64,000 nucleotides of DNA from Candidatus Margulisiibacteriota bacterium (GCA_025453605.1 JALOPZ010000002.1:388631-452630), one strand, 5' to 3'; positions 4,209 to 27,365 are shown, counted from the first letter of the stretch. Notes: a model not told the origin generated them from the letters alone. Program-made: numbers and translations.

Positions 4209-5255
4209 TCAGCGCAGCGCCGCCAGGATCGCCCGAGCCCGGTGCCGGTAAGTATGTTCCGCCAGGGTCCGTTTTTGGGCCGCAGCCATGACCGCCTGAC
4301 GGGCCGCCTCATCACGCAGATAATACTCGATCTTTTCCTTCATCTCCGCGACTGAACCGACGACGATCACTTCGCGGCCCGGTTCATAAAGTTTTCCCAG
4401 GTCGGGCCGACTGGCGTCAACCAGCTGAAAAGCGCCGAGTCCGGCCAGGAAAAAGGTCCGGTCGTTGGGCGACTGCGCCGTTACCTTCCCCTCGTTCTGG
4501 TCGATCGGCTGGCCATAGCTGTCGCGGTGGAGGTTGAGATTGATCCGGGCGCCGCGCATGTAGCGGCTCGCCTCCGGCCAGGGGGTGAACTGTTCGGTCA
4601 CAAATTCCTTTAGTTGGTCGTAATGACGCAGGTTCTGCGCCCACGACTCGGACAGGACATGCGAACCGATCAGCCTGACCCGGTAGCGGCTCAAGAAATC
4701 GGCCGCTTCGTCAAGCCAGCGGACGCGGGTGGAAGCGCGGAACGGCGTGCCGATAAAACAGATGTCGCTCCGGTATTGCGCGGTGATCTCCCCACCATCG
4801 AACTGAGGCAAATAAGCCAGGGGAAGATAGGTCGCCGCCGGGCAACCGCCGGCGCGGTGCAGGTCAAGCGTCGACGAATCGACCGAAAAGAGCCGATCGC
4901 AATGGCGGGAGACCTTGAGCGAGGCGTCAACGCAGTAAGGCTCGTCCAGCTCCCAGTCGGCGATCCGGACCCCACCCGCCCGCAAGCGAACGAATACCTC
5001 GGCCGGCAAAAACCGGCCGTTGAGCGCCAGCAGCCACGTGTCAGCGGCCCCTTTGAGCTGGTCGCAGAGGACCGTGGCGACCCGGGCCTTAGCTTGCGCC
5101 TGGTCAAGCCCCAGTTGGGCCTTGACCTGTTCAGCAAGGGCAACATACTCCACAACCTCGGGCTCGACCCCTTCCGCCTGAAAAGCGGCCGTGATCTGCC
5201 GGCTGATCGACCCGATCAGCGTGGAAGAGTCAAAATTAACGAAGATCAATCTCAT
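4209..5255 (-). CDS. CgeB-family (DUF3880 + Glyco_trans_1_2) glycosyltransferase-like protein
   Basis: The C-terminal region ...NLNLHRDSYGQ...RTFFLAGLGAFQLVD...YYLRDEAARQ resembles CgeB/YkvP-type spore-maturation glycosyltransferases. Confidence 0.5.
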   Translation of the reverse strand: MRLIFVNFDSSTLIGSISRQITAAFQAEGVEPEVVEYVALAEQVKAQLGLDQAQAKARVATVLCDQLKGAADTWLLALNGRFLPAEVFVRLRAGGVRIADWELDEPYCVDASLKVSRHCDRLFSVDSSTLDLHRAGGCPAATYLPLAYLPQFDGGEITAQYRSDICFIGTPFRASTRVRWLDEAADFLSRYRVRLIGSHVLSESWAQNLRHYDQLKEFVTEQFTPWPEASRYMRGARINLNLHRDSYGQPIDQNEGKVTAQSPNDRTFFLAGLGAFQLVDASRPDLGKLYEPGREVIVVGSVAEMKEKIEYYLRDEAARQAVMAAAQKRTLAEHTYRHRARAILAALR

Positions 5256-6685
5256 GACCGTAAATTCTGCCTCATGGTCAGTTCCAGTTGTTTGAGCATG
5301 GTCCGCAGGTCGCGCTTCAGGCCGCCGTAAGCTTTTAGCTGCTCCCGGTAATCGCCTTTCAATGCCTGATCGAACTTAACCTGCGAGACCGACGGATCGA
5401 CGTAATAGTTGCGCAGCTGCGAGCGCCGGTAATACTTTTTGGCCCCCTCTTTGTTGCCGGCTTCAAAATTGACCATTGCCATCAACATATCCCGGTCAAG
5501 GGCACTAGTATTGATCACGTTCCGGAAGGTCGGCACAAAGACCCGGACAGCCGGGATGCCGAGCCGGGGGTGGGTCTTGTCGATCAGAAAAACGTCGTGA
5601 CCTTCGCCCCGCAGGAGCGCCAGTAATTCCAGGACCTCGTCCCGAAAATCATCCCGGCTTAAATTCCGGAGCGCCTCCATTTTAACCGGCGCGGCCGGCA
5701 CGCTGAGCATCTCGTCATTGAGCAGGGCGAGGAAACCGTAATTCTGGCGCGGCATTTTGGCAAGCATGGCCGGCCAGTTGAAATGGAGCTCCTGCTCGAT
5801 ATTGGTCATCAGCGAATAGCCTTCAAAATATTCGGCCAGAGCGCGGATCAGCGCTTTGTCCGGATCGGTGTGGGCGCCGTAGCCGCAGCCGCGGAACGAG
5901 AGTTTGTTCTGGCGCTGCCCCGCCTGCCCGTAAACACAGAAAGTCGGCACCCCCAGCTCGAACGAGATATCCTTGACCGCGATCCTGACCCCGACCGCGG
6001 CGGCGCTGGCCAGCGTGCGAACGACCAGCGGGTGCTTGACCGATCGGAGATCGAGTTCCCGCGGCGTCTTTTTAGCCGCAAAGAATCGGAAGACGTTTTC
6101 CCGCTCGATCACCTCGCACAGGGCCTGCACGATCGCTTCTTCCAGGGCGTTGCCGGCCGCCAACCCGTTGGAAGTTTGCGTGTAATTGTGCCAGTTGAGC
6201 GGATAATAATACGGCCGGTAATCGTTGAGCGAAACGGCCTTGAGCCACTTAAGCGGAATATCCTTGACCTGCGCCAGTAATTCTTCCCTATTATCCCAGT
6301 CGGGAAAACAACGGAAAAAATAAGTTTCGTCGGGGACCGGGAAACTCCATTTTTTCATCTCGCTCCACGACTTGACCATGTAACCGGGGGCATGCTCGTA
6401 ATCAAAATGGAGCCAGGAGTAGCGTTCGGCAAATTCCATCACCGCGCTCGCCTCGGATTGGTCGGGCGTCAGTCCTTTGCCGTTGGTCGTCAACTGGTCG
6501 CTAACGCTGGCAAAAGAGAAGGCCCCATCGACGTCGATCGGCCGCTCCTCCAGCTTTAGATGAGAGAGATCGGGCTGCTTTTGCAGTTTGGCCAGCGTCG
6601 CCTTGACCGTTTCGGCCGGCGCCGCGGCCTTGTCCTGGTCTTCCCAGGAGTGTTTCAGACAGCTTGCGAGTCGAAACTCAGCCAC
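5252..6685 (-). CDS. YcaO-domain protein
   Basis: TSNGLAAGNALEEAIVQALCEVIERE is the hallmark YcaO ATP-binding motif. The start is placed at a GTG preceded by GAAAGGA (RBS) rather than the ATG at 6745, which would overlap the upstream gene by 68 nt. Confidence 0.7.
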   Translation of the reverse strand: MAEFRLASCLKHSWEDQDKAAAPAETVKATLAKLQKQPDLSHLKLEERPIDVDGAFSFASVSDQLTTNGKGLTPDQSEASAVMEFAERYSWLHFDYEHAPGYMVKSWSEMKKWSFPVPDETYFFRCFPDWDNREELLAQVKDIPLKWLKAVSLNDYRPYYYPLNWHNYTQTSNGLAAGNALEEAIVQALCEVIERENVFRFFAAKKTPRELDLRSVKHPLVVRTLASAAAVGVRIAVKDISFELGVPTFCVYGQAGQRQNKLSFRGCGYGAHTDPDKALIRALAEYFEGYSLMTNIEQELHFNWPAMLAKMPRQNYGFLALLNDEMLSVPAAPVKMEALRNLSRDDFRDEVLELLALLRGEGHDVFLIDKTHPRLGIPAVRVFVPTFRNVINTSALDRDMLMAMVNFEAGNKEGAKKYYRRSQLRNYYVDPSVSQVKFDQALKGDYREQLKAYGGLKRDLRTMLKQLELTMRQNLRS

Positions 6686-7076
6686 GTTTTTTTCCTTTCG
6701 CTGATCGCAATAAGAGAAATTCAGCGCCGCTCCCCTCGTCCACAAAGCCGACCAGGAACGCCGGCGCCTGGCGGTATTCTATCATCCCGGCGGCGATCTG
6801 TACCGCTTCATTTAACCGGCCGATCACCGTCACGACCGGACCGCGCAACCCGAGCGCGATCGAGACCATGCCGGCCGCCAGATTAAGGACCGTGTGGGGA
6901 AAACGGAGGGCGGAGGCGTGCGCCGGCCCGTGCTTTTTCAGGTCGCGTAGGAACTCTTTGGTACTGCTCCGCGGCCCGGTCAAGGTCGCCACCACCACGC
7001 CGGTGCCGGACGGAATGTTTTTTCGCCCGGCCGCCACCAGGGCCGCGTCAACCGCCAGCCGCGCAAACCGGTCCAT
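6678..7076 (-). CDS. Truncated beta-ketoacyl synthase N-terminal-half protein lacking the active-site Cys (chain-length-factor-like)
   Basis: KMDRFARLAVDAALVAAG...FPHTVLNLAAGMVSIALGLRGPVVTVIGRLNEA aligns with FabF residues ~60-200, but the Cys of the ACTSG motif is replaced and the His-His C-terminal half is absent. The start is trimmed to MDRF so it does not overlap the KS gene. Confidence 0.6.
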   Translation of the reverse strand: MDRFARLAVDAALVAAGRKNIPSGTGVVVATLTGPRSSTKEFLRDLKKHGPAHASALRFPHTVLNLAAGMVSIALGLRGPVVTVIGRLNEAVQIAAGMIEYRQAPAFLVGFVDEGSGAEFLLLRSAKGKKRG

Positions 7077-7086
7077 TTTCCGGTAT

Positions 7087-8175
7087 TTATTTTTTAAAAG
7101 CGAGGACCGCATTGCTCCCTCCAAACCCGAAATTGGCGGACAGGACAGCCCGCAGAGGGCGGGACCGGGCCTGGTTCGGTACATAATCGAGGTCGCACTC
7201 CGGATCGCGCTTTTTGTAATTGATCGTCGGCGGAATGAACGAGTAACGGATCGCCAGGACAGAGGCGAGCGCCTCCACCGCTCCCGCCGCGCCCATCAGA
7301 TGGCCGATCATCGATTTGCTCGAACTGACCGGCAGCTTGGTCGCCCGCACGCCGAAAACCCGCTTAAGCGCCCGGGTCTCCATCGCGTCGTTCTGCGGCG
7401 TCCCGGTCCCGTGGGCGTTGTAATAATCGATCTCACTCCGATCAAGGCGGGCGGCGGTCAGCGCCGCTTTGATCGCCCGGGCGGCGCCCCGGCCGCTCGG
7501 ATCGGGGGCAGTTTCGTGATAAGCGTCACCGGTCAGGCCGTAGCCGGCAAACTCTGCCCAAATGTCAGCGCCGCGGCGGAGCGCCCGCTCCCGCTCTTCC
7601 AGGATGAGAAAAGCCGCTCCTTCACCGATGACCAGCCCTTGCCGGGCCGCGTCGAACGGCCGGCAACAGAGCGGGTCAAGCGAGCGGAGAGCGTGGAATC
7701 CGGAGAAAGTTAAAAGCTCGAACGCTTCAGCCCCGCCGGCCAGGACAACATCGTGTTTGCCTTGCCGGACCAGGTCAGCGCCGCAAGCGAGCGCGGTCGC
7801 ACCGGCCGCGCAGGCGTTGCTGACGGTGATCCGCCGGCCGGAAAAACCGAGCTGCCGCGCCAGGACCTGAGCGGAGCAGCCGCCGCCGCTGACGGTCCCG
7901 ACCGAGATCCCCCACGGTCCGGCGCCGATCCCCGCCTGTTCACTCGCCTCCCGGGCCGCCAGTAAAGCCAACTGGGCAACGCGCTCGACTCCCGGCAACA
8001 ACCCGGTTAACCCGCGAACCTCACCGCCGATCCGGGCGCGCATCTCCCTGGTAGAGAAAGAGGTAATTCTGGTAATGCCGGAGCGGCCGTGCGCCAGAGC
8101 GCGGTGGAACGAACGGAGGCCGACTCCGTTGGGGGCGACAACGCCGAGGCCGGTGATAACGACCCGGCGCTTCAC
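7087..8175 (-). CDS. Beta-ketoacyl-ACP synthase (FabF-like KS, 362 aa)
   Basis: The active-site Cys (ITVSNACAAGATAL), His (YYNAHGTGTPQND) and His (KSMIGHLMGAAG) are all present. It is shorter than housekeeping FabF. Confidence 0.8.
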   Translation of the reverse strand: MKRRVVITGLGVVAPNGVGLRSFHRALAHGRSGITRITSFSTREMRARIGGEVRGLTGLLPGVERVAQLALLAAREASEQAGIGAGPWGISVGTVSGGGCSAQVLARQLGFSGRRITVSNACAAGATALACGADLVRQGKHDVVLAGGAEAFELLTFSGFHALRSLDPLCCRPFDAARQGLVIGEGAAFLILEERERALRRGADIWAEFAGYGLTGDAYHETAPDPSGRGAARAIKAALTAARLDRSEIDYYNAHGTGTPQNDAMETRALKRVFGVRATKLPVSSSKSMIGHLMGAAGAVEALASVLAIRYSFIPPTINYKKRDPECDLDYVPNQARSRPLRAVLSANFGFGGSNAVLAFKK

Positions 8176-8432
8176 TTTTTGCCGGTCAGTTTTTCGACGA
8201 ACTCAGCCAGGGTGCCGACCGTTTTGAAGACCTGATCCGGCTTTTTTAGATTGCGGTTGTTGATCTTGACCTTGAACTCGCGCTCGATCGCCACGATGAT
8301 CTCGAGCGAATCGACCGAATCAAGACCGAGCCCTTTCCGGAAGAGCGGCTCGCTGTCTGGGATCCTGGCTGGATCACGGTCCAGGTTCAACTGCTCGACC
8401 AGCATTTTTTTCAAGCGTTCTTTTACCGTCAT
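8172..8432 (-). CDS. Acyl carrier protein
   Basis: 86 aa with GLDSVDSLE, the phosphopantetheine-attachment Ser motif. Confidence 0.8.
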   Translation of the reverse strand: MTVKERLKKMLVEQLNLDRDPARIPDSEPLFRKGLGLDSVDSLEIIVAIEREFKVKINNRNLKKPDQVFKTVGTLAEFVEKLTGKK

Positions 8433-8450
8433 TAAAGCACCTCCGTGAGA

Positions 8451-9182
8451 TCAGGCGGTCAAACCGCCGTCAACGACCATGGTCTGGCCCTGGACATAGG
8501 ACGAATCGGCCGAAGCGAGAAAAACAACCGCGCGGGCGACCTCGGCCGGCTTTCCGGCCTTACCCAGCGGGATCATTTTCAGATATTTACTTTTCAATGA
8601 GTCGGTCAGTTCCGATTCGATCAGTCCGGGCGCGACCGAGTTGACCCGAATGTTATAACGCGAAACTTCTTGCACCAGCGAGCGGGTCAACCCCGCGATC
8701 CCCGCTTTGGCCGCCGCGTAGTTCGCCTGGCCCTCCACGCCGCGGAGCGCGGAGACAGAGGAGACGTTGACGATCGCGCCGCTCTTGCGGGCGATCATCG
8801 GCTTAAGGACCGCCTGGCAGCAGTTAAAGATCCCTTTCAAATTGACGTTCAAGACCTCATCCCATTCCGCTTCAGACATCAGCATTAAGAGTTTGTCGCG
8901 GACAATGCCGGCATTATTGACCAGAATGTCGATCCGGCCGAAGCGGCGGAGGACCTCGGCCACTGCTTTTTCGACCGCAGCCGACTTTTCAACTTGAATG
9001 GCTAACGGAAAGGCGCGTCCACCGGCTGCCTTGATCTGCTTGACTGTTCGGAGCGCGGCCGCTTTATTGCGCCCGTAACCAACAACTACCAACGCCCCTC
9101 CCCTGGCCAATTCAAGGGCGATGGCCCCACCCAGTGCGCCGGAACCGCCAGTCACCACTGCCACCTGATTTTCCAGCTTCAT
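8451..9182 (-). CDS. 3-oxoacyl-ACP reductase (SDR, FabG-like)
   Basis: VTGGSGALGGAIA...NNAG...YAAAKAG, with the Rossmann motif and the SDR Tyr-x3-Lys. Confidence 0.8.
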   Translation of the reverse strand: MKLENQVAVVTGGSGALGGAIALELARGGALVVVGYGRNKAAALRTVKQIKAAGGRAFPLAIQVEKSAAVEKAVAEVLRRFGRIDILVNNAGIVRDKLLMLMSEAEWDEVLNVNLKGIFNCCQAVLKPMIARKSGAIVNVSSVSALRGVEGQANYAAAKAGIAGLTRSLVQEVSRYNIRVNSVAPGLIESELTDSLKSKYLKMIPLGKAGKPAEVARAVVFLASADSSYVQGQTMVVDGGLTA

Positions 9183-9264
9183 TTTATTAGATAATAACGC
9201 AAAATGTTTGACTAAGCAATAACGTTGTGTTAGTTTATCGACCGAAGCCGTTAAGGAGGATATT

Positions 9265-9774
9265 ATGCTGCATTATTTCGGTAAATTCTGGACCAGGGTC
9301 CTGTTATGGTTGACCAGAATAACAGTTAAGATTGAGGGGGAGAAGAATATTCCGGCCGGGCCGGTCATCTACATTCAGGACCCGGCCGAAGCGCGTGACG
9401 GGATGGCAACACTCGCCTATCTCCCCGGTAAAGCGCACTTTATCTTTTCCTGCCGCCGCTTGGTCATCCCGCTCTTTGGTTTTCTGACGCTGGACCCAGC
9501 GAACCTGACCGTAATGCACGACGACGCGCTGGCGATCATCGGTAAACTGGAGAAGAAAGAAAGCGTCATTTTCTTTACTGACAAAGGAGAGATCAAGGGG
9601 GGAGTAACACTGATCGCACTGGAGACCAAACTGCCGGTCGTGCCGGTCAAAGTAAAACGTCAGGGGAAAGTAGTGACGATCAAGATCGGCAAACCGCTCC
9701 GCGCGGGGAACGCCGCCGACGACCACCGGCACCGGCAGGCGCTGAAAGCCGACCTGGAGAAGGCGCTGGCTTAA
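9265..9774 (+). CDS. PlsC/LPLAT-like acyltransferase-domain protein (catalytic HX4D not evident)
   Basis: Weak resemblance to 1-acyl-sn-glycerol-3-phosphate acyltransferases, with an N-terminal hydrophobic segment. It is convergent with the sigma-28-type island. Confidence 0.35.
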   Translation: MLHYFGKFWTRVLLWLTRITVKIEGEKNIPAGPVIYIQDPAEARDGMATLAYLPGKAHFIFSCRRLVIPLFGFLTLDPANLTVMHDDALAIIGKLEKKESVIFFTDKGEIKGGVTLIALETKLPVVPVKVKRQGKVVTIKIGKPLRAGNAADDHRHRQALKADLEKALA

Positions 9775-10085
9775 CTCGCGCCGAGGCCGCCAAGCTGGTC
9801 TTTGGCCTGCTCGATCGCGGCCAGGACCTTGTTCGCTCTGGCCTGTAAGGTGGGCGGGATCTGGCGAAGTTGTTTTTCCAGTTGGCCCAGCCGCTGCATC
9901 GTCTGTTCGCGCAGCTTGGTCTCGGCGATCTTATTCCCCTGCGAGACTTCCTCGTTGGTCTTCTGGTTGTAGTCCCGGATGATCCGCGAAACCTCCGCTC
10001 CCACGTTATCGATCTGCAGCGCCATCGCCTGGGCAGAATTGGCCAGCGAACCGAAACCGTAACTACCGTTTATATTCATGTTCAT
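9771..10085 (-). CDS. Hypothetical 104-aa coiled-coil protein (last gene of island operon 1)
   Basis: The ORF has host-like codon usage, is predicted helical (KLREQTMQRLGQLEKQLRQ) and lies 13 nt downstream of the 540-aa gene. Confidence 0.5.
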   Translation of the reverse strand: MNMNINGSYGFGSLANSAQAMALQIDNVGAEVSRIIRDYNQKTNEEVSQGNKIAETKLREQTMQRLGQLEKQLRQIPPTLQARANKVLAAIEQAKDQLGGLGAS

Positions 10086-10098
10086 CCTTCTCCTCCTT

Positions 10099-11721
10099 TT
10101 AAACCGCTTCGCGGACCAGGCGCAATTCCTGGCCGGGATTACCCAAATTGGACTCGGCGCAGAGCCGGGCGATCACGTCAGTCAGCAGCTTCTGCTTGCC
10201 GGTCAGGAACGCGACCGGCCCCCGGGCCTCGATCGCCGCCTTGACCACGGCCAGCTCTTCCTGGGCTTCCTGCAGCATCTTGGCGTTCGCCTTGTCGCGG
10301 AGCGAATCGAGCTCGGTCTGCGACAGAGCGACGCCGAGCTTTTCCAGATTCCGCAGGACCGTCTTGATCTTCTTTTCCGTGATCGACCAGGCGCTGCCGG
10401 ACAGCTTAGCATAGGTCGCCCGCTCTTCAAAGCCCTCGCGCAGCATTTCCATCAGTCGATAACGGGCCAACCCTTTCCCCTCCGTCTCGATCTGTTCTGT
10501 ATTGCTGACGCCGAGCTTGATCAGCCCGTTCTTGAGCTTGATCATCTTGAACTGGGTTTCCAGGATTGTCCGGGAGTCGCCGTTGACCGCGCGGCGCAGA
10601 TAGAGGGCGCGGAGCTTATCGGTCAGGATATCTTTTTCCTCGTCGGCCGTGTACTGGTACTGCCGCGGCCGTTCGTCGGCACTTCCCCCCTGCCCGCCGG
10701 CCGCCGCCTGGGCCCCCTGGTTATGGGCGATAACCGGCAGCAAGCCCTGGTCGAGACTGATGTCGGGGAGGCGCTGCATAAAGCCCTGGATGTCGAAACC
10801 GATCTTCTCGCCGAGCTTGAGGACCTGGTCGATCTCCTTGACGATCTTGTTTTCCGGCTGTTCGCCGACAGTCTTGCTGGTCAACCCCTCGGTCAGTTTT
10901 TCCGCCACAAAATCCTTGAGCTCCTGGGACTGGTCGCCTGTTTGGCGGTCGACCGCCCCTTTCAGGTCGCCCTCCCGGCCGCCGAAATCGTAACCGCCAA
11001 GCTTGTCGTTAAAGAAAGCAAAATCGATATACCCCTGGACCTCTTTCTTGCTGAGCAGCTCTTCGACCGATTTGCCGGGGGCGCAGAGCTGCTTGATGTA
11101 GCTCTGCTTGACCTGGCGCATGATCTCGGAGCGGACCGAATTGGCGGCGTTGAGCTTGACGCTCTGCAGTTCCTTGGGCGAAAAGCCTTTATCCTTGAGG
11201 AGCGAGGTTTCCAGCTGCTCCAGCTTTTTCTTCGCTTCGCCGCCGCCGGAGACTAAAAATTGCGAATAGGCGCCAAGATATTCCTTGACCGCCGCCCGGC
11301 TCGCCGGCCGCTGGTCAGCCTGCTGGCCGTCGGAACCGCCCTGCTGGCCGGGATCCTGCTTGGCCTTCTGGTTCTTACCGACATAATAGTCGGCCGACTT
11401 GATCTCTACCCGGTCACGGCCGCCCTCTTCCTTGTTCTCCAGGGCAAAGCCGAAATCCTCTTTCAGGCTCTGCATGATCTTGTTCGCCGGCATCTGCTGG
11501 GCCAGGCGGGCGGCGATCTGCGCCAGGATATGTTCCCCGGCTTTGCCTCCCCCTTTCTCCAGCGCTTTTTGCAGAGCGCTTTCGCTCAGAACGTTGCTCT
11601 GTTCCTGGTTCTGATCAACTTTTTTGTCGAGCGTGTTCTGGAGCAGCGTGTCCAGGCTCTGAGCCTGCGCCAGATTGGCGGCGACCGCTAACTGTTGATT
11701 ATTGGCTTGTTCGATCCCCAT
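10099..11721 (-). CDS. Hypothetical 540-aa protein (island operon 1)
   Basis: Long ORF with no recognised domain, Gln/Lys/Glu-rich with Gly-rich linkers, 2 nt downstream of the GT2-TPR gene. Confidence 0.6.
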   Translation of the reverse strand: MGIEQANNQQLAVAANLAQAQSLDTLLQNTLDKKVDQNQEQSNVLSESALQKALEKGGGKAGEHILAQIAARLAQQMPANKIMQSLKEDFGFALENKEEGGRDRVEIKSADYYVGKNQKAKQDPGQQGGSDGQQADQRPASRAAVKEYLGAYSQFLVSGGGEAKKKLEQLETSLLKDKGFSPKELQSVKLNAANSVRSEIMRQVKQSYIKQLCAPGKSVEELLSKKEVQGYIDFAFFNDKLGGYDFGGREGDLKGAVDRQTGDQSQELKDFVAEKLTEGLTSKTVGEQPENKIVKEIDQVLKLGEKIGFDIQGFMQRLPDISLDQGLLPVIAHNQGAQAAAGGQGGSADERPRQYQYTADEEKDILTDKLRALYLRRAVNGDSRTILETQFKMIKLKNGLIKLGVSNTEQIETEGKGLARYRLMEMLREGFEERATYAKLSGSAWSITEKKIKTVLRNLEKLGVALSQTELDSLRDKANAKMLQEAQEELAVVKAAIEARGPVAFLTGKQKLLTDVIARLCAESNLGNPGQELRLVREAV

Positions 11722-11723
11722 GT

Positions 11724-12767
11724 TCAGTTCCCCGCCCCGAACGGATAGATGGCGCGCGCCAGCGCCAGGTTCGCTTCGGCTTTCTCGCGTTCGCCTTTCT
11801 GCTTATAGGCCTGCCCGAGCAGGTAGTGCGGCAGCGCCTGATAGAGATACGGGTTCTCGACCGGGCTGTCCCACTTCTTGCCAGTGACCTCGGTCATGAT
11901 CTCGATCACCTGATCGGCCTTCCCCTGCATCAGGAACATGGTCGCAAAGACATCCTTGGCCGGAATATTTTCTTTATCAGCGGTATAAAGCTCCATTGCC
12001 GCCCGGCCGGCCGCCTGATATTCACCGAGCTGCAACAGATTGATCGCGATCTTCTCCTTAGCTTGCAAGACCAGGTCGGCAGCGGCTCCGAGCGTAACCA
12101 CCTGGCGGTAATGCTCGATCGCCTCCGCCTTGCGGCCGACCTCGGCCAGCGTGTTGGCCAGAAGAAAATGATAATACGGATCGGTCGGATTGGCGGCGCA
12201 GGCGGTGCCGTAGAGCTCCAGATAGCGTTCCCGTTTGGCCGCCATCTGCTCCGCCTCGCGCTGCTTACCCCAGTGATAAAGGGTGATCGGCAGCGCCGGG
12301 CCGCTGACGACCTTACCAGCCGCGTCGACCAGCTGCTCATTGATCGGCCTAACAAAGTGAATACCGAGGCCGTTCCGGAAAGCCTTGACCCGCTGGTAGC
12401 GGAACCCGTTCTGCGTCGTGCCGTAAGGGGCTTCGCACATCGTGATCTCGTAAGCCTCGGCCTTCCCGTTCTCAATGGCCGTACGCAGCTTCTTCAGTTC
12501 TGCGGTCTCCAGATACTCATCGGCGTCGATCCAGATGATCCAGTCGCCGGTCGCGTGCTTGAGCGATTCGTTGCGGGCGGCGGCAAAATCCTTGATCCAG
12601 GGGAAGTGATAGACCCTGGCGCCGTACTTTTCGGCAACCGCCACGGTCTGATCGGTCGAGCCGGTGTCGACCAGGATGAGCTCGTCGACCCCCTGGGCCA
12701 GCGCCGGAAGGACCAGCTGCAGAACAGCCGCTTCGTTCTTGACGATCATGCAGGCGGAGATTTTCAT
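11724..12767 (-). CDS. Family-2 glycosyltransferase with C-terminal TPR repeats
   Basis: MKISACMIVKNEAAVL...LVDTGSTDQT...WIIWIDADEYL is the GT2 DxD region. The C-terminal half has TPR-like repeats (EAIEHYRQVVTLGA..., LLGQAYKQKGEREKAEANLALA). Confidence 0.75.
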   Translation of the reverse strand: MKISACMIVKNEAAVLQLVLPALAQGVDELILVDTGSTDQTVAVAEKYGARVYHFPWIKDFAAARNESLKHATGDWIIWIDADEYLETAELKKLRTAIENGKAEAYEITMCEAPYGTTQNGFRYQRVKAFRNGLGIHFVRPINEQLVDAAGKVVSGPALPITLYHWGKQREAEQMAAKRERYLELYGTACAANPTDPYYHFLLANTLAEVGRKAEAIEHYRQVVTLGAAADLVLQAKEKIAINLLQLGEYQAAGRAAMELYTADKENIPAKDVFATMFLMQGKADQVIEIMTEVTGKKWDSPVENPYLYQALPHYLLGQAYKQKGEREKAEANLALARAIYPFGAGN

Positions 12768-13153
12768 CAGACCGCCACCTTGACCCGGGTCGGGTTAAGC
12801 TGTTGAGCGGCACGGCGGACCAATTTGGTATCGCCCTGTTCTTTTTCGAGCGTCTTGGTCAGCTGGGCCGCGTGCTGGGCCCGCAGGGCCTGCGCTTTGC
12901 GGATGTAGGAGTTGAGCCGTTCCAGCTTGATCAGGATCTCTTTTTTGTTGGTGCCGAAGATGCTCATCTCGTATTCAAGGTTCGATTTTTCCATGTAGAA
13001 ATCGCCGGTGATCCGGTCGATCGCTTCCAGCTTCATCTCCGAGAGCACGGCCGGCCGGTAATCGTGGCTGATGCCGAGCCGCTCCGCCTGGACCAGGAGC
13101 TGGTTCTTCAGTTCGGTAATGACTTTTTTCTGCGCTCTTTTTTTCTTGCTCAT
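12767..13153 (-). CDS. Hypothetical 128-aa protein (island operon 1)
   Basis: The start is set at the internal MSKKKRAQKK, which forms an ATGA overlap with the upstream gene's stop. The rest of the 181-aa ORF is antisense to that upstream coding sequence. Confidence 0.5.
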   Translation of the reverse strand: MSKKKRAQKKVITELKNQLLVQAERLGISHDYRPAVLSEMKLEAIDRITGDFYMEKSNLEYEMSIFGTNKKEILIKLERLNSYIRKAQALRAQHAAQLTKTLEKEQGDTKLVRRAAQQLNPTRVKVAV

Positions 13154-13680
13154 GCCAGTATCTCGTGCATCGTTTCGTCGTAAATGGTCTGCCGCATCGC
13201 CGTGTGGTTCTGGTCGATCTGGTCGGCGCGGACCTGGGAGCGGAGGTCGGAGAGCTCTTCGGCGCTGACACCGAAGTGAGCAAGCTGGTCCATGACGTTG
13301 CCGACGAGCCATTCGGAGACGCGGGCCAAAAGCCGGTTGTGCGAAAACATGTTGCCGTAGGCGCCGACGTAGGCTTTCTTGAAGCGGTTGACCAGCTCTT
13401 CGCGCATGGTGGCCGGTTTGGCGCTGTCGAGCTTCCCGCCGACAGTGGTGGTAGCTGACGCGAGCAGTGAGGTAGAATCGTCAAGCCCGGGGACGACCGC
13501 CTTAAAATCGGCGCCGCTATTATCCTCGACCCATTTCAGCTGCGATTCCCTAGTCGCGGCAGCGGATTTGTCGGTCAGCGACTGCTGTTCTTGCGGCTTT
13601 TGCTGGCCAAGCGCCAACTTCGCCTGGAGGGCGTACTCTTTGGCTCCCGAAAATCCGCTGGTAAGTGCTAGTTCGCTCAT
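13150..13680 (-). CDS. Hypothetical 176-aa protein (first gene of island operon 1)
   Basis: The ORF lies 16 nt downstream of sigma-28-like motif P1. No known domain. Confidence 0.55.
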   Translation of the reverse strand: MSELALTSGFSGAKEYALQAKLALGQQKPQEQQSLTDKSAAATRESQLKWVEDNSGADFKAVVPGLDDSTSLLASATTTVGGKLDSAKPATMREELVNRFKKAYVGAYGNMFSHNRLLARVSEWLVGNVMDQLAHFGVSAEELSDLRSQVRADQIDQNHTAMRQTIYDETMHEILA

Positions 13681-13696
13681 AGCTCTGCTCTAATAA

Positions 13697-13725
13697 TATA
13701 TCGGGCCAAGAGGGGGAAAACTTGC
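13697..13725 (-). promoter_or_regulatory. Sigma-28-like promoter motif P1: GCAAGTTTT-CCCCCTCTTGG-CCCGATATAT (gene strand)
   Basis: Reverse complement of tatatcgggccaagagggggaaaacttgc. It matches TAAAGTTT-N11-GCCGATAA in both elements and in spacing. The ATG lies 16 nt downstream. Confidence 0.65.
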
Positions 13726-13754
13726 ATCAAAAGAGCGTTTTTTTGTAGGCTAGA

Positions 13755-16031
13755 TCAGGCTTTTTTCGGCTTCTTTTCGGGAGCTTTCTGCAACTGGCGG
13801 CTCCGTTCGGCCCGTTCCGCGTTGCTCCGTTTATCGGCCGCCTTAGCGGTCGCTTCCCGTTCCTGCTGCCGTTTCTCAGCCGTTTTCTGGTCGGCGCGGC
13901 GGCTGGCCGCCTTTCTGGCTTCGTTGGCCGCCTCCACTTTTTTGTTAGCGGCGATCTCGTTGCCCTTTTCGGTAAAATCTTCCTTATCCTGATTATATTC
14001 GCGCTCGTTAGCTTTGCGCACATGCGCCCGCTCCCCGGCCAGGCGGAGCCCCATCCCGTTGCCGCTCTTGTAGAGCTGGCCGAGCAGGTGGACGACCCAG
14101 TTCTTGGTGTAGGCCGTGCCGGAGGTCGCGGTCGTCGAGTTCAGGCCAACAAACTGCATCCCGGAGTAAGCCGGGTGGTAATAATCCTCGTTCTGCTTGG
14201 TGTTCATCGTCACCCCATAGAGCGAGCTGACGATCGAACGCCAGTAAACCGTTTCGTCATTCGGGGATAACCTGGTCGCGCCTCCACCCGATCCGTTATT
14301 GGCGATCAGGATAACACTATCGGCAAATTTTCGGTCGTAACCGTAAGCGGCTGTCCGCTGCTCCGCGGCATACTTGTGAACGTTATAAACATATGCGCCG
14401 TTCACCGGGGTCCATTTAATATCTTCAGTAAAATCGGCCCCGCCCGGCCCGCCAAATTCGCCATAGCCGATCGCGACCCATTTCCCCTCTTTATCCTGGA
14501 CATAATCGTTGGTCCCGATCGTCACCGGAATCCCGCTGACCGCCAACCCGATCCCGAGGTCGCCGCCATAATTTACCTGGTTCGCCTCGCGAGCATAATA
14601 ATTTCCGAACCAGCTCTTGATAAAGGCATTAGCCTTGTCGTAGAGCTTCTTGCGGTTCAGAAAATCCTGCTTTTCCGCGTCGCTTAGCTCATCGACGTCC
14701 GTGTTGTCATATTGCTCCTGGGTCAGGCCGGAATAAGTGTACCGCCAGGTAAAAAGGTTCTGGCTGGCCAGGTCGGAATCCTGATCGACCGATGGGGTAT
14801 GATCGTTCATCCGATAATTTTCGTAGTCGCCCAGATAGTCGTTGAACTGGCGGGCCCCCATCGCCTGGGAAAAATCCCAGAACCGCATATTATCCAGCTG
14901 GGAGAGACTTAAACCAGCATTTTTGTTCCCTTCCCAGTACGCAGTCATGTGATTGGTGACGGTATGCTGGAGCTGAAAATAATTGGTAAAAAGGGAGATC
15001 TCATGGTAGTTATAATACGGCTTGTGCGCCCGAACAAAGGCATCGATATGCGTCATCATCTGTTTGTCATTACGCGTCTGATCGACCGGGCCAAAGACCT
15101 GTCGCTCCATGAACCAGATCCGGCGTGACGATTCCTTCATTGCCAGGGTGAGCATCATCTTACCGGTGGCGTCGAGGCCATTATAAGCCCCGCTCATGAC
15201 GATGTCGTAAAAGCTTTTGTTGCCAAAAGTGCTGTTCAACCAACTGGTCAACCGGGTAAAGCTCCAGCTCTCACCGGTCCAATCGCTAAGCAGCCCTAAT
15301 CCCTCGTCCCCATTGATAAAGTAGGCCTGATTGGCATCAGCCGCCCCTACCGCGTCCGGTGTCCCCGGCCGTTTGGCCCGGCTTAGGTGGTTCCACTCGC
15401 CGGCAGCGACCCGGAAATCGAGATTTTTGTACGATAACCCCATGTTCTTACCGGCCGAGACATTGGCCTGCTCATTGCTGCCGGGGCCGAACGAACCGGA
15501 TTTGTGCCGCTGGCCGGAGACCCAGTTATTGCGCCAATCGTTCAGGCCGCTACTGCCGGGATGCGACGCCTCCCAGGCTTTGAGTGAGACTTCGTTATCG
15601 ACCACGCCATTTTTGGCTAATCGTTTCATTTCTTCGTAATACCGGTACATCTTTTGGTCGTCCGCGTTGCTGCTCCCGGCCTTGCTCTTCCAATCGTCGG
15701 TGAACTGGCGCCATTCACTACCGTCGTTTTCATCGATCGTAAAGCCCCATTCGTTGAACTCTTTCAGCCAGTCATCCGTGACTCTGGTCGTTTCTTTGCC
15801 GTTCTGCAGCGCGACTCCCTCGCCTTCGTCGGCAAACGCGGTCCCTTCACAGTACATCTGCTCAAAGCCGGGGAGCCACTTCATCATCTCCTGGCCAAAA
15901 TTGGCCAGCCGGGCTAAGCCGGCATCTTTGGTGAGAAAGTTCTGCAGGTCGCGGGTCCGGGGCATAAGCTTGCGGCGCGGCGGCCGCAGCTGATATTCGT
16001 CCGTAGCGAGGAGGTTATTCCACGACGTCAT
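13755..16031 (-). CDS. Hypothetical 758-aa Trp/Tyr-rich protein with a ~110-aa Lys/Ala/Glu/Arg-rich C-terminal tail
   Basis: Long ORF. The tail ...NKKVEAANEARKAASRRADQKTAEKRQQEREATAKAADKRS...KKPKKA is histone-H1-like low complexity. Third gene of island operon 2. Confidence 0.6.
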   Translation of the reverse strand: MTSWNNLLATDEYQLRPPRRKLMPRTRDLQNFLTKDAGLARLANFGQEMMKWLPGFEQMYCEGTAFADEGEGVALQNGKETTRVTDDWLKEFNEWGFTIDENDGSEWRQFTDDWKSKAGSSNADDQKMYRYYEEMKRLAKNGVVDNEVSLKAWEASHPGSSGLNDWRNNWVSGQRHKSGSFGPGSNEQANVSAGKNMGLSYKNLDFRVAAGEWNHLSRAKRPGTPDAVGAADANQAYFINGDEGLGLLSDWTGESWSFTRLTSWLNSTFGNKSFYDIVMSGAYNGLDATGKMMLTLAMKESSRRIWFMERQVFGPVDQTRNDKQMMTHIDAFVRAHKPYYNYHEISLFTNYFQLQHTVTNHMTAYWEGNKNAGLSLSQLDNMRFWDFSQAMGARQFNDYLGDYENYRMNDHTPSVDQDSDLASQNLFTWRYTYSGLTQEQYDNTDVDELSDAEKQDFLNRKKLYDKANAFIKSWFGNYYAREANQVNYGGDLGIGLAVSGIPVTIGTNDYVQDKEGKWVAIGYGEFGGPGGADFTEDIKWTPVNGAYVYNVHKYAAEQRTAAYGYDRKFADSVILIANNGSGGGATRLSPNDETVYWRSIVSSLYGVTMNTKQNEDYYHPAYSGMQFVGLNSTTATSGTAYTKNWVVHLLGQLYKSGNGMGLRLAGERAHVRKANEREYNQDKEDFTEKGNEIAANKKVEAANEARKAASRRADQKTAEKRQQEREATAKAADKRSNAERAERSRQLQKAPEKKPKKA

Positions 16032-16049
16032 GCCTGCTCCCTAGCGGGG

Positions 16050-16376
16050 TTACCCGCCAAACAGGGAGAAGAGCTTATTGGAGAGATCGAGATCGTTCTT
16101 CTTGATAGCGAGGAGGCGATCGATCACGGAGAGCGTATCGGAGTTCCACTTGTCGGCCAGATAGGTGGCGGCCGCCGAGTCTTTTCTCACGATGTGGCCC
16201 TGGATCTCGACCGTTTCGGTCGTGTCGTCCGACATCGCTTCAACATAGGTCTTCATGTCCTGGTTGAACTTCTGCCAGAAATCGACGATCTTATCGGTAA
16301 CGCTGCTGGCGTCCTTTTCGTAGGAAGCCCCCTGTAGCTGGGATAATATTGCGTAACCGCTCTGAATTTCACTCAT
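16050..16376 (-). CDS. Hypothetical 108-aa acidic protein
   Basis: ORF between the 111-aa and 758-aa genes. It could be chaperone-like (small, acidic), but this is speculative. Confidence 0.45.
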   Translation of the reverse strand: MSEIQSGYAILSQLQGASYEKDASSVTDKIVDFWQKFNQDMKTYVEAMSDDTTETVEIQGHIVRKDSAAATYLADKWNSDTLSVIDRLLAIKKNDLDLSNKLFSLFGG

Positions 16377-16463
16377 CTTTTTCCATCTCCTTTTCCGTCC
16401 GCTTCAACCAGGGTTGCCTGATTTAAGAGGACGGGGCCCCCGGAGGGGCCACCGTCAACATTC

Positions 16464-16799
16464 TTACAGCTTCTGGGACAGCTTCGCATTGATCTGCTTG
16501 TCGAGGTTCGAGGCAGAGGCCAAGCCGCTCGCCTGGTTCTGCTGCCGCATGCTAAATTGTTCATTGACGTACAGGAAAGCCGAACCGTCAACCTTGACCG
16601 CTTTCCCGGCGCTGGTGACCACGCAACCGGCCGCATTCGCTTCGGCAGTCGTGTGACCTTTTCCCGCGTTGTAATCCGAAGCCTGGATGTCAGCACCAGA
16701 GTTCGCGTCAACGCCTTCGAAAGCATTGATGACCTGGTTTTGCCACGCATCGGTCTTTTGGTCCATCTTTATAAAAGAATCTGTCATATCTACGCTCAT
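16464..16799 (-). CDS. Hypothetical 111-aa protein (first gene of island operon 2)
   Basis: Preceded by the RBS AAAAGGGGGTGA and a ~95-nt leader from motif P2. Confidence 0.5.
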   Translation of the reverse strand: MSVDMTDSFIKMDQKTDAWQNQVINAFEGVDANSGADIQASDYNAGKGHTTAEANAAGCVVTSAGKAVKVDGSAFLYVNEQFSMRQQNQASGLASASNLDKQINAKLSQKL

Positions 16800-16869
16800 G
16801 TTCTTTCACCCCCTTTTAGTTTGGCCCGCCTGTCGAGAGCGAGCCTGATCTCCGATCCCCTTCCAATTG

Positions 16870-16898
16870 CTTATCGGGTCGAGCCCCGCAAAACTTGC
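16870..16898 (-). promoter_or_regulatory. Sigma-28-like promoter motif P2: GCAAGTTTT-GCGGGGCTCGA-CCCGATAAGC
   Basis: Reverse complement of cttatcgggtcgagccccgcaaaacttgc. It is the closest match to the E. coli FliA -10 GCCGATAA. Confidence 0.65.
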
Positions 16899-16901
16899 AT
16901 C

Positions 16902-17156
16902 CTAGACAACGGTATTTTGGACCAGCATCCCGGGGAGCGGCAGCCCGCCGAGCCCGGCCATGTAGCTTTTCACTTCGTGGGCCGCCGGCATAATAGCGTC
17001 GAGCTTGGCGCCGGCGCCGGCCGTCCCCGACCCGTCATTCCCCAAACCGAGCGCCTGGGAGACGTTATCACCGAGGGAATTAAGCGAGAGACCGCCTCCG
17101 CTCAGGTCGATCCCGTATTTGCTCTTGAGAGACTCTTCGGCGCGCAGCATGCTCAT
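16902..17156 (-). CDS. Hypothetical 85-aa Gly/Leu-rich protein
   Basis: The track ORF 16902..17219 is trimmed to the internal MSMLRAEE, because motif P3 lies inside the longer ORF's first 20 codons. Gly-rich (LGLGNDGSGTAGAGA...AGLGGLPLPGML). Confidence 0.45.
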   Translation of the reverse strand: MSMLRAEESLKSKYGIDLSGGGLSLNSLGDNVSQALGLGNDGSGTAGAGAKLDAIMPAAHEVKSYMAGLGGLPLPGMLVQNTVV

Positions 17157-17165
17157 GGCACTGTT

Positions 17166-17194
17166 ATTATCGGGGGGAGAGGCGGAAAACTTGC
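17166..17194 (-). promoter_or_regulatory. Sigma-28-like promoter motif P3: GCAAGTTTT-CCGCCTCTCCC-CCCGATAATA
   Basis: Reverse complement of ttattatcggggggagaggcggaaaacttgc. The ATG lies 9 nt downstream (leaderless-type). Confidence 0.6.
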
Positions 17195-17219
17195 ATTGCG
17201 GAGGTGACAGGGAAAACAC

Positions 17220-17408
17220 TAATTCTCACTAATTTGTCCGCTCGCGAATAACGCTAATGGGATTTTCACTAATTAGGCGAAGCACTCTAATTGACGCTTA
17301 TATCGCGAATATTGAGTAACATTAAATAATTAGCGTAGATTAGTGATGATTAGCGTCTTTAGCAAAATCCCATTAGCGATATTAGAGATCCTGGGTAATT
17401 AGTGATAA
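17220..17408. repeat. AT-rich (~35% GC) spacer with reiterated TAATTAGCG / CACTAATTAG motifs and a perfect 15-bp inverted repeat (cgctaatgggatttt at 17252-17266, aaaatcccattagcg at 17364-17378)
   Basis: Read directly from the sequence. It lies between the end of the giant operon and motif P3. No ORF of 60 aa or more. Confidence 0.7.
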
Positions 17409-17720
17409 TTAGCGTTTTGAGGGGTGGCCCAGGTCATTTAGGAGCTGGCGGATCCGGTCTATCGACGATTCCAGGGCTTTTTCTTCTTCTTCGCTGAAGC
17501 TGAAAAGCTTTTCCAGCTTCTCTTCTTTCTGCTTGTTGAGGTTCAGCAGAGCGGCCGAATTACCGTCGGCAATTTGCAGGTTGGCCGACTTGGCCAGCTG
17601 GCTCAGGTTCGCCGCAAAGCTCGGGCCGTTCTGGGCCTGGCTCGACGAACTCTGCTTATTGGCCGGCTTGATCGCCGCCGCGTCGTTGATAATATTCGGA
17701 TTCACGTTCCCGATGTTCAT
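17409..17720 (-). CDS. Hypothetical 103-aa Ser/Asn/Ala-rich, likely disordered protein, translationally coupled (ATGA overlap) to the giant gene
   Basis: MNIGNVNPNII...AANLSQLAKSANLQ...EEKLEKLFSFSEEEEKALESSIDRIRQLLNDLG. The size and composition are reminiscent of FlgM-type anti-sigma-28 factors, but similarity is weak. Confidence 0.45.
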   Translation of the reverse strand: MNIGNVNPNIINDAAAIKPANKQSSSSQAQNGPSFAANLSQLAKSANLQIADGNSAALLNLNKQKEEKLEKLFSFSEEEEKALESSIDRIRQLLNDLGHPSKR

Positions 17721-26440: not shown

Positions 26441-26646
26441 GGCTTGTTATCGTCGTCAACCTGGCTGAAAAAATCGATCTTATAAACCTCGGCCGTTTTC
26501 TGTTCCAGGGCGCTCTTTTCTTTTTCCAGCCGGTCGATGGTCTCACGCAGGCTCGCGGCGCTGGCCGCGGCGGCGACCGTATTCCGCACGACCAAACTGA
26601 TCAGCACGATCAGGACCACCAGCACGATCAGCCAGATGATCATCAT
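26437..26646 (-). CDS. 69-aa single-pass membrane protein with coiled-coil (FtsB/FtsL-like architecture)
   Basis: MMIIWLIVLVVLIVLISLVV followed by ...LRETIDRLEKEKSALEQKTAEVYK. Confidence 0.4.
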   Translation of the reverse strand: MMIIWLIVLVVLIVLISLVVRNTVAAAASAASLRETIDRLEKEKSALEQKTAEVYKIDFFSQVDDDNKP

Positions 26647-27323: not shown

Positions 27324-27365
27324 GATGGGGGGATTATAGCAAATCGACCGGCCGGTGACTATCGT

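Follow-up and report, generated by a model that had tools for sequence, protein, structure and literature searches.

Does a gene for a YcaO-domain protein belong to the same pathway as its neighbours when it lies in one operon with genes for a ketosynthase (KS), a truncated KS-like protein, an acyl carrier protein (ACP), a ketoreductase (KR) and a glycosyltransferase (GT)? The question is raised by positions 4209 to 9774 of a stretch of 64,000 nucleotides from a Candidatus Margulisiibacteriota bacterium (GCA_025453605.1, JALOPZ010000002.1:388631-452630), which was analysed at its full length and is called the window here. A first-pass annotation of this DNA had proposed that the YcaO and the KS set form a single biosynthetic unit. 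In this study, we have compared the window with related loci (designated L003, L049 and so on) and found that the KS, its truncated partner (hereafter the half-KS), the ACP, the KR and a divergently encoded protein of the lysophospholipid acyltransferase (LPLAT)/PlsC type make up a cassette that is present in the window, L049, L003, L042, L038-L040 and L041, that is, in at least six lineages of Margulisbacteria and Saganbacteria, and that the YcaO is separable from this cassette. What we observed directly comprises the genes present, their domains, their catalytic and motif residues, the recurrence of the cassette across lineages, and the fact that the YcaO can be separated from it. On balance we favour, with about an even chance of its being right, a reading in which the cassette is an accessory module whose acyl chains go into a glycoconjugate of the envelope, while inherited gene order has brought a partner-less, probably protein-modifying YcaO into the same transcript. 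As part of this reading, the region would be the hisA-proximal end of a variable envelope-glycosylation island and would hold two units with separate histories. The genes named by the first-pass annotation are all there, at or within a few codons of the positions it had given and with strong domain statistics, and the proteins of the window, which is part of a 527-kb metagenomic contig (JGI Ga0392394_0000002), have their closest named relatives in Candidatus Margulisiibacteriota/Margulisbacteria.

The ketosynthase and its half-length partner

The KS (7087-8175, minus strand; 362 residues from a GTG start) carries both the N- and the C-terminal ketoacyl-synt domains, and its triad, Cys122-His255-His292, is invariant in our alignment A2, in agreement with the intact Cys-His-His triad that had been read from this DNA before. 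The half-KS gene that follows it (6678-7112, minus strand; 144 residues) matches the PF00109 profile at positions 81-170 only (E 6.6e-8) and the fabF profile at positions 60-186 only, with about 53-197 covered across the family of 144- to 191-residue proteins to which it belongs. At the position of the catalytic Cys it has Leu, and this column is occupied by Leu or Ile in all members of the half-KS family. These proteins do not have the full-length, two-half thiolase fold and correspond, at 144-191 residues, to its N-terminal part alone. The best solved relative of the half-KS is 6KXD_B, which is Iga12, the chain-length factor (CLF) of the highly reducing type II polyketide synthase (PKS) for ishigamide (E 2.4e-6). 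The first-pass annotation had described a Cys-less open reading frame (ORF) of 133 residues at 6678-7076; the ORF and its missing Cys are confirmed, and the coordinates have to be revised, because the GGAGGGAG Shine-Dalgarno sequence, the same call by JGI and the conservation in relatives of the residues ahead of MDRF make ATG 7112 the most likely start.

What suggests that the two proteins work together is the pattern of what each has lost. In alignment A8, the half-KS retains the FabF segment GP..AS..FP.TV.N..AG.VSI..GL.GP and is without the Cys and without the entire C-terminal half that holds both His residues, whereas the partner KS keeps the triad, and the very segment kept by the half-KS is degenerate in the KS relatives and deleted in the window KS. 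The deletion in the window KS is in frame, spans 29 residues (A2 columns 111-139) and is absent from all close relatives. In FabF-type dimers, the segment in question contributes to the dimer interface and to the acyl pocket of the partner. Because the KS and the half-KS have thus degenerated in complementary ways, it is most likely that they are the halves of an obligate heterodimer with one active site. If so, a half-KS of 144-191 residues would be essentially just the interface and pocket-lining segment of FabF and, to our knowledge, the smallest KS partner described; it would define the minimal contribution of a partner subunit, and would extend the idea, put forward for AmcG in 2023, that truncated CLF-like proteins reprogram FabF-type KSs.

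It could be argued that the half-KS is a decaying fragment, and the first-pass annotation had itself pointed out that its absence or disruption in relatives would speak for a pseudogene. The ORF is intact, with 168-191 residues in the relatives and 144-168 in the window depending on the start codon chosen, and it overlaps the stop of the KS gene by 26-38 nucleotides in the window, L049, L003, L042, L039 and L041, at identities of 34-70%. Since an intact, translationally coupled ORF is found in at least six lineages at this level of divergence, our comparisons argue that the half-KS is not a pseudogene and is a genuine, conserved CLF-like partner, even if the window copy has a deletion of 13 residues near its C-terminus. 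The family is a small one. A word-indexed homologue search with the half-KS returned four close relatives only, and a profile built from four sequences, run against 1.84 billion representative proteins, recovered about seven clusters of short half-KS-family proteins; the next matches past the short family are mostly KS- or CLF-like proteins of 230-440 residues, or the second KS-like domain of proteins of about 740-970 residues. A metagenome scan with the half-KS alignment gave five loci, of which two were duplicates, two were too short for context and one was a weak match.

The closest relatives of the KS are proteins of 385-392 residues from Margulisbacteria and WOR-1/Saganbacteria (54-70% identity), and beyond this close family lies a broad plateau of FabF-like proteins at 43-49% identity. 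It scores 274-294 bits with FabF, against 244 bits with the actinorhodin KS and 233 bits with Iga11, and so is closer to FabF than to either; its best structural match is PDB 9S5H, a heteromeric KS on which a literature search gave nothing relevant. The nearest KS relative outside the family that we examined, P0163 (45% identity; Deltaproteobacteria SM23_61), lies in a cluster (L048, 4596-9373) with a LolA-like protein, two KSs and a B12-radical S-adenosylmethionine (SAM) protein, which suggests an aryl-polyene-like or unusual-lipid cluster.

Are the KS, ACP and KR simply the fatty-acid synthase (FAS) genes of the organism? The KS falls below every curated cut-off (fabF equivalog, 372.7 against 493.75 bits; PRK07314, 361.5 against 387; AmcF, 242 against 325), and its full-length relatives likewise miss the fabF cut-off, with 376-383 bits. 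The ACP (8172-8432, minus strand; 86 residues; PP-binding, E 1.2e-10) has an invariant phosphopantetheine-bearing Ser39 in LGLDSVDSLE and an insertion of seven residues relative to E. coli AcpP; it misses the AcpP equivalog acyl_carrier (46.2 against 70.45), and its best curated model, PRK09184, is missed as well (56 against 70). The KR is a FabG-like short-chain dehydrogenase/reductase (SDR) of 243 residues (8451-9182, minus strand; adh_short, E 4.4e-60; KR domain, E 7.7e-23) that reaches 281.4 bits against a cut-off of 297.75 for TIGR01830, passes the broad FabG subfamily model NF009466 (239 against 222), and is 52-79% identical to the KRs at the same position in L003, L038, L041 and L042. 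As judged by these models, the set is not the canonical housekeeping FabF/AcpP set, because all the equivalog cut-offs are missed. The earlier description of a KS/CLF-like pair flanked by its own ACP and SDR ketoreductase, and distinct from canonical housekeeping FAS, is therefore upheld. The genes fabD, fabH, fabZ and acc are not adjacent to the module, and the scanned ORFs of the window include no second KS, ACP or KR and no fab gene of another kind.

The charge and divergence of these proteins vary among lineages. With an isoelectric point (pI) of 9.5, the ACP is basic, which is very unusual for an ACP, and its identity between the window and L003 (8113-8373) is 91%, compared with no more than 67% for the KS. 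In the window sublineage a basic pI, of 10-11, is likewise seen in the KS and the half-KS; these two are acidic to neutral in L039 and L041, and L042 has an ACP of pI 5.4, a KS of pI 6.8 and a half-KS of pI 9.5. The idea that the basic pI of the ACP, KS and half-KS goes with the presence of the YcaO was rejected, as L042 has a YcaO and an acidic ACP.

The YcaO gene and the hisA position

The YcaO gene (5252-6685, minus strand) starts with GTG 6685 and encodes 477 residues (100% match to P0001). The domain call and the ATP-binding motif of the first-pass annotation are borne out: the protein matches PF02624 with 210.8 bits and passes TIGR00702 (113.7 against 75.65), and the SNGLAAGNALEEA motif is nearly invariant in the family. 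In 36 family members, the ATP/Mg motifs ME.xER, SNGLAxGN..EEA and CEVIERE are invariant, and so are the residues E84, E87, R88, N173, G174, N179, E183, E191, E194 and R195. It is a single-domain protein of pI 7.15 with a C-terminal tail of about 90 residues, about equidistant from the cyanobactin heterocyclases, the YcaO of M. jannaschii and that of E. coli, and it falls into no characterised subclass (SagD-type TIGR03604, 107.6 against 219.25; McrA-type, 101.8 against 365; E. coli NF040716, 71 against 700). The last of these scores goes against its being the S12-modifying or E. coli housekeeping type, which the first-pass annotation had named among the outcomes that together would undo its proposal; yet the YcaO does behave as a stand-alone type.

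This became apparent from the distribution of the family. The YcaO family alignment was run against 185,579 species, each represented by a single genome, with relatives being picked up through three short peptide patterns. This yielded 29 species-level loci (a sample, not a census) with 23-49% identity; they belong to Saganbacteria, Margulisiibacteriota, Marinamargulisbacteria, Termititenax, 'Deltaproteobacteria', Aminicenantes and other groups. In none of the 29 did tblastn with all twelve window proteins detect a KS, ACP, KR, half-KS or CgeB-like GT within 10 kb, and the YcaO also occurs without the module in L004, L005, L007, L009 and L050. The annotated surroundings of further YcaO homologues are unrelated to one another. 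An all-against-all clustering of the ORFs in 32 loci, together with BLAST of the large neighbours, gave no neighbour common across lineages; conserved neighbours were accordingly rejected as a feature of the family, the sharing being limited to synteny within lineages and to giant proteins within Marinamargulisbacteria. Tandem YcaO duplicates occur in L021 (10001-12789; Marinamargulisbacteria/Termititenax). In L007, L022, L024 and L025, of the same groups, the YcaO directly adjoins proteins of more than 3000 residues (upstream of 10001) with a weak match to a transglutaminase core, and in L009 and L050, both from Saganbacteria, proteins of 974 and of 2200-2977 residues lie upstream of it. We found no sequence relation between these giant proteins and the large proteins of the window.

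The partners that a peptide-modifying YcaO might require, and which it had been suggested to look for, did not turn up: TfuA is absent from all the YcaO neighbourhoods read, and among the annotated neighbours there is no E1-like/Ocin-ThiF partner or fusion, no RRE (the recognition element of RiPPs, peptides made on the ribosome and modified after translation) and no recognisable precursor peptide. As a RiPP precursor, orf104 was tried and rejected; this protein of 104 residues is poorly conserved, helical or coiled-coil-like and rich in Lys, Glu and Gln, and has no core rich in Cys, Ser or Thr. Stand-alone YcaOs with a protein substrate are known, since the E. coli YcaO thioamidates uL16 (Met82) and a methanogen YcaO thioamidates methyl-coenzyme M reductase at an McrA glycine (PMC13063428). 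Most likely, the partner-less YcaO of the window likewise modifies an amide in a protein or peptide, and does so without involvement of the acyl module.

The most telling comparison is that of the arrangement beside hisA. We compared the neighbourhood hisA-hisH-ROK-groES-groEL-nusA-infB across loci. In type A, the module and the YcaO are both present (window; L049, with 64% YcaO identity; L003, 60%; L042, 54%, partial). Type B, in the WOR-1 loci L038-L040, has the module followed by a GT4 and a GT2, without YcaO; in type C (L041) the module abuts hisA directly, again without YcaO; and in type D (L009 and L050, both 49%) it is the YcaO that abuts hisA directly, with giant proteins upstream and without the module. 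Saganbacteria thus show the YcaO without the module (L009, L050) as well as the module without the YcaO (L038-L041). The YcaO is thus anchored to hisA with the module on its far side, either one can be absent, and both occur together in one sublineage only (window, L049, L003 and L042). Because the whole neighbourhood is syntenic in the clade, the conserved adjacency of type A carries little weight; and because the YcaO stands alone in 29 loci and either unit can be missing at the hisA position, the link between the YcaO and the module is weak. The YcaO is separable from the acyl module, and the proposal that it belongs to the same biosynthetic unit as the KS, CLF-like protein, ACP and KR is not borne out. 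Its adjacency to a KS set should not be taken as the mark of a hybrid biosynthetic gene cluster. The family is better regarded as a widespread partner-less clade, which makes it a good candidate for proteome-wide substrate prediction of the kind carried out for the E. coli YcaO.

The acyl module in a probable envelope-glycosylation island

On the minus strand, from 9182 down to 4209, the operon reads KR, ACP, KS, half-KS, YcaO and CgeB-like GT. The genes are tightly packed, with a gap of 18 nucleotides between KR and ACP and overlaps of 4 (ACP/KS), 26 (KS/half-KS), 8 (half-KS/YcaO) and 4 nucleotides (YcaO/GT), and the stop codon of the GT gene abuts that of the convergent hisA. The first-pass annotation was right to place the YcaO and the GT next to the KS and mistaken in calling them upstream, as both are downstream of it in the order in which the genes are transcribed. 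The divergent region of 82 bp between the KR operon and orf169 (9183-9264) is the sole non-coding gap of the locus and presumably holds the promoters; it has one sigma-70-like match on the plus strand (9238-9266), and the number of such matches there is not above chance. Terminator-like hairpins were no commoner than in shuffled sequence (8 found, 8.8 expected).

The last gene of the operon (4209-5255, minus strand; 348 residues) has the architecture of a CgeB-type GT, as had been called, with DUF3880 (PF12996; 30.1 bits, residues 101-170) followed by Glyco_trans_1_2 (PF13524; 104.8 bits, residues 179-345). This slot after the YcaO or the module is variable: it holds a GT2 and a GT4 in L049, a radical SAM protein, a CgeB-like GT and a methyltransferase in L003, and a GT4 and a GT2 in L038. 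Upstream of the module, three genes that travel with it (9771-12767, minus strand) encode orf104, orf540 and a GT2 protein with tetratricopeptide repeats (GT2-TPR; Glycos_transf_2, E 5e-23, plus TPR) that weakly resembles the SunS family (69 bits against 350). In L003, L042 and L049 the module has homologues of orf540 and GT2-TPR upstream of it, and the same is true of L038, which has no YcaO and whose upstream region adds GT4 and TPR-GT9 proteins. The cassette is surrounded in every locus by GTs of the GT2-TPR, GT4, GT9-TPR or CgeB-like kinds, and radical SAM genes recur near it (radical SAM in L003, radical SAM-SPASM in L049, B12-radical SAM in L041).

The divergent gene beside the KR, orf169 (9265-9774, plus strand; 169 residues), has no Pfam or NCBIfam match of its own, and its assignment to the LPLAT/PlsC-like proteins comes from its homology to PF01553 neighbours in related loci. 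It is 79% identical to the L003 copy, and it aligns with the PF01553 proteins of 267-279 residues in L038, L041 and L042 at 34-39% identity over the full length (tblastn) or 38-44% (MAFFT alignment A3); those homologues hold the same divergent position beside the KR. The L049 copy of 176 residues does match PF01553. The window, L003 and L049 copies are truncated at the N-terminus, where about 84 hydrophobic residues are absent (a shortfall of about 84-100 residues). The catalytic motif of PlsC is NHxxxxD, and in every LPLAT-like copy of the cassette the His of HX4D is replaced by V, P, I or F, the motif reading IQDPAEARDG or VQD....LDG. The homology to PlsC that had been claimed for this gene is therefore retained and canonical catalysis becomes doubtful: the LPLAT fold is probably kept, but not the catalytic use of the canonical dyad. 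All the LPLAT-like proteins of the module (window 9265-9774; L038 8120-8923; L041 6405-7244; L042 5742-6581) share an MHDD motif and a His near the N-terminus.

The most likely scenario for how the module works would be as follows. The KS would supply the Cys-His-His triad and the half-KS the partner segment lining the acyl pocket, as a chain-length or cyclisation factor, and together they would extend an acyl primer, carried by the dedicated ACP, through condensation with malonyl-ACP. For malonyl loading the pair would draw on the housekeeping FabD, the way the cispentacin and coronafacic acid systems do. Reduction of the 3-keto group by the KR would then give a 3-hydroxyacyl-ACP, which might be processed further by the housekeeping FabZ and FabI, and the LPLAT-like protein would serve as transferase or adaptor in passing the chain to a lipid or glycoconjugate of the envelope that the flanking GTs would build. 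As an ATP-dependent amide activator, the YcaO would modify a protein or peptide backbone independently, for example by thioamidation, its gene beside hisA having become co-transcribed with the cassette in one sublineage. Margulisbacteria and Saganbacteria are uncultured sister lineages of Cyanobacteria, and the cassette would mark in them an uncharacterised envelope-lipid or glycoconjugate trait. The genome paper on these two groups is silent on lipids and envelope (PMC6349859).

Further genes of the window complete the picture of its surroundings. The proteins orf104, orf540, orf128, orf176 and orf758 and a protein of 1986 residues (together 9771-23677, minus strand) match no Pfam family; they are hydrophilic and in part Lys-, Glu- and Gln-rich. 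The series from orf104 to orf758 has homologues alongside the module in L003, L042 and L049, and the protein of 1986 residues has no match in the loci searched. Beyond them, two tandem PF01553 acyltransferase genes (239 and 226 residues) are followed by a porin-like gene with a weak Porin_4 match (25721-28271, minus strand). A polysaccharide-type locus (35218-42865, minus strand) encodes a Bac_transf sugar transferase, a Wzy_C-TPR fusion resembling O-antigen ligases, a GT4, a polysaccharide pyruvyl transferase and DUF5693, and a protein of 1162 residues (59482-62970, minus strand) shows an unusual fusion of an N-terminal LplA-B_cat domain, which resembles the catalytic domain of lipoate/biotin protein ligases, to PD40/WD40-like beta-propeller repeats. 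The remainder of the window also carries housekeeping genes.

Alternative readings and known systems

Several observations weigh against the two-unit reading. The locus has no gene for a dehydratase, an enoyl reductase, a thioesterase or an enzyme that loads the starter, and for this reason the product is not derivable from it; the LPLAT-like protein is without the catalytic His in every lineage, so that its status as an acyltransferase may be in doubt; and the AlphaFold2 monomer of the half-KS, made from a shallow alignment, reached a mean pLDDT of 56.6 and was discarded and left out of the fold search. The window copy of the cassette also looks eroded, given the deletions in the KS and half-KS and the truncated LPLAT-like protein. 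Moreover, the YcaO start overlaps the half-KS stop by 8 nucleotides in the window, L003 and L049 and is separated from it by a gap of 9 nucleotides in L042, so that the two genes nearly abut down to about 54% YcaO identity. Coupling kept over such a distance often signals shared function, and this overlap in type A is the one argument for a functional link. Finally, the radical SAM proteins and the SunS-like GT2-TPR in some versions of the island are of kinds typical of peptide tailoring, and suggest that the substrate might be a peptide or protein and not a lipid.

These last points could also be arranged into an integrated hybrid pathway, in which the YcaO would act on what the cassette makes or share a substrate with it. 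An example would be an N-acylated amino acid, peptide or protein that receives its acyl group from the module and its sugars from the GTs and in which the YcaO activates an amide, so that a thioamide, an amidine or an azoline results. The catalytic motifs of the YcaO are intact, its junctions with the half-KS and the GT are translationally coupled in the window (the former being kept in L003, L049 and L042), and a radical SAM or radical SAM-SPASM gene stands beside it in L003 and L049, with the SunS-like protein upstream. Nevertheless, we consider such a pathway unlikely in view of the stand-alone YcaOs of the 29 recovered loci and of L004, L005, L007, L009 and L050, the cassettes without YcaO in L038-L041, the clade-wide synteny that deprives adjacency of much of its weight, and the lack of a TfuA, an E1-like protein, an RRE or a recognisable precursor in the neighbourhoods read, orf104 being unsuitable. 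A full-text literature search, judged by title and abstract, likewise found no report of a YcaO in an ACP-dependent pathway. A single pathway running from KR, ACP, KS and half-KS through YcaO to GT, in which the YcaO would activate an amide of an ACP-derived intermediate or of a lipidated peptide or protein and so lead to a glycolipid or lipoglycopeptide bearing a thioamide, amidine or azoline, is in our estimation quite unlikely; if true, it would be the first case of a YcaO recruited to a carrier-protein-dependent pathway of the fatty-acid or polyketide kind, with a minimal 'half-CLF' KS.

The signs of erosion allow another view, that the cassette is losing its function in the window lineage and the operon is kept mainly for the YcaO and the GT. 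The in-frame deletion of the KS is confined to the window, the half-KS has its own deletion, the LPLAT-like protein is short in the window, L003 and L049, and the ACP, KS and half-KS have moved to a pI of 9.5-11. We find this distinctly unlikely, as every ORF is intact and in frame, with no loss of the triad or of the phosphopantetheine Ser; the ACP (91%) and orf169 (79%) are more identical to their L003 counterparts than the KS (67%), which argues for purifying selection, and the deleted KS segment would line a pocket that does not exist in the half-KS partner, so that its loss may be tolerated. At the protein identities of 60-79% between the window and L003 or L049, synonymous sites are saturated and dN/dS is unsuitable. 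Much the same gene order as here is found in the canonical fab operon, fabF, acyl_carrier and 3oxo_ACP_reduc are the best curated models, and housekeeping FabFs are 44-51% identical to the KS, all of which might recommend the genes as the fabG-acpP-fabF of housekeeping type II FAS; that is very improbable, with the KS, ACP and KR all under the equivalog cut-offs, the full-length relatives included, no adjacent fabD, fabH, fabZ or acc, a basic ACP with an insertion, a half-KS partner that has no counterpart in FAS II, and a cassette that is missing from the syntenic locus of L009 and L050. Equally hard to credit is an orthologue of AmcF-AmcG or Cfa3-Cfa4, that is, a pathway of the cispentacin or coronafacic acid type, with a five-membered carbocycle formed by the KS together with the truncated protein. 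Among the curated models, AmcF alone matches the KS end to end in one stretch (residues 5-361 to 2-368/369, 242 bits), there are weak matches to AmcG (17.3 bits) and AmcB (45.4 bits), and a truncated CLF-like partner is just what has been described for AmcG; yet all three scores are under their cut-offs (325, 80 and 80, respectively), the relatives of the half-KS have no AmcG match at E 1e-3, no homologue of AmcC, AmcD or AmcE was found, the KR present here lies outside the Amc core, and no AMP-binding family, as expected of an AmcH-type ligase, occurs among the genes within 10 kb in L001, L003 and L049. AmcH is an adenylate-forming 2-oxoglutaryl-ACP ligase that is required in the Amc cluster (PMC10698177), and membership of the Amc family was rejected on the three equivalog scores and the missing ligase.

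The two-unit reading, an acyl-chain module for an envelope glycoconjugate beside an independent YcaO, can be set against several known systems, the YcaO having its parallels in the partner-less enzymes of E. coli and of methanogens. The YcaO shares with them the conserved ATP/Mg motifs, the absence of an E1-like or TfuA neighbour and the stand-alone gene. It differs from the E. coli enzyme (PMC13063428) in its pI (7.15 against about 4.4), in having a tail of about 90 residues instead of a TPR domain of 150 and in its score of 71 bits against 700, and from the methanogen YcaO acting on the McrA glycine in its score of 101.8 bits against a cut-off of 365.

For the acyl module, the rhizobial lipid A module AcpXL-FabF1XL/FabF2XL-LpxXL offers an analogy, and no more than that, in that it too groups a dedicated ACP with FabF paralogues and an acyltransferase in a setting of envelope biogenesis, and its product goes to a glycolipid; it differs in having two full-length KSs, a dehydratase and a transferase of the LpxL family. 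The KS-CLF pairs of highly reducing type II PKSs (Iga11-Iga12, 6KXD) and of aryl-polyene-type systems resemble ours in that the catalytic Cys is replaced in the partner. Unlike the half-KS with its 144-191 residues, which cover FabF positions of about 55-200 only, however, known CLFs are full-length thiolase folds (378 residues in Iga12), and the dehydratases, thioesterase, AMP-ligase and exporter of those systems have no counterpart at this locus. AmcG is CLF-like, truncated and devoid of the motifs, and is soluble only when AmcF is present; the AmcF-AmcG heterodimer borrows FabD and FabI (PMC10698177). With AmcF-AmcG and Cfa3-Cfa4 the present module has in common a compact KS with its Cys, a much smaller KS-derived partner without catalytic motifs encoded next to it in the operon, and a dedicated ACP, malonyl loading and possibly reduction being presumably borrowed from housekeeping FAS in all of them; it is distinguished from them by the FabG-like KR and the LPLAT-like protein, by its GT context and by the phylum of the host. 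The idea of a KS with a truncated CLF has been known since 2023, and what is new here is a smaller partner, a new phylum and a new context, made up of a KR, a His-less LPLAT-like protein and GTs.

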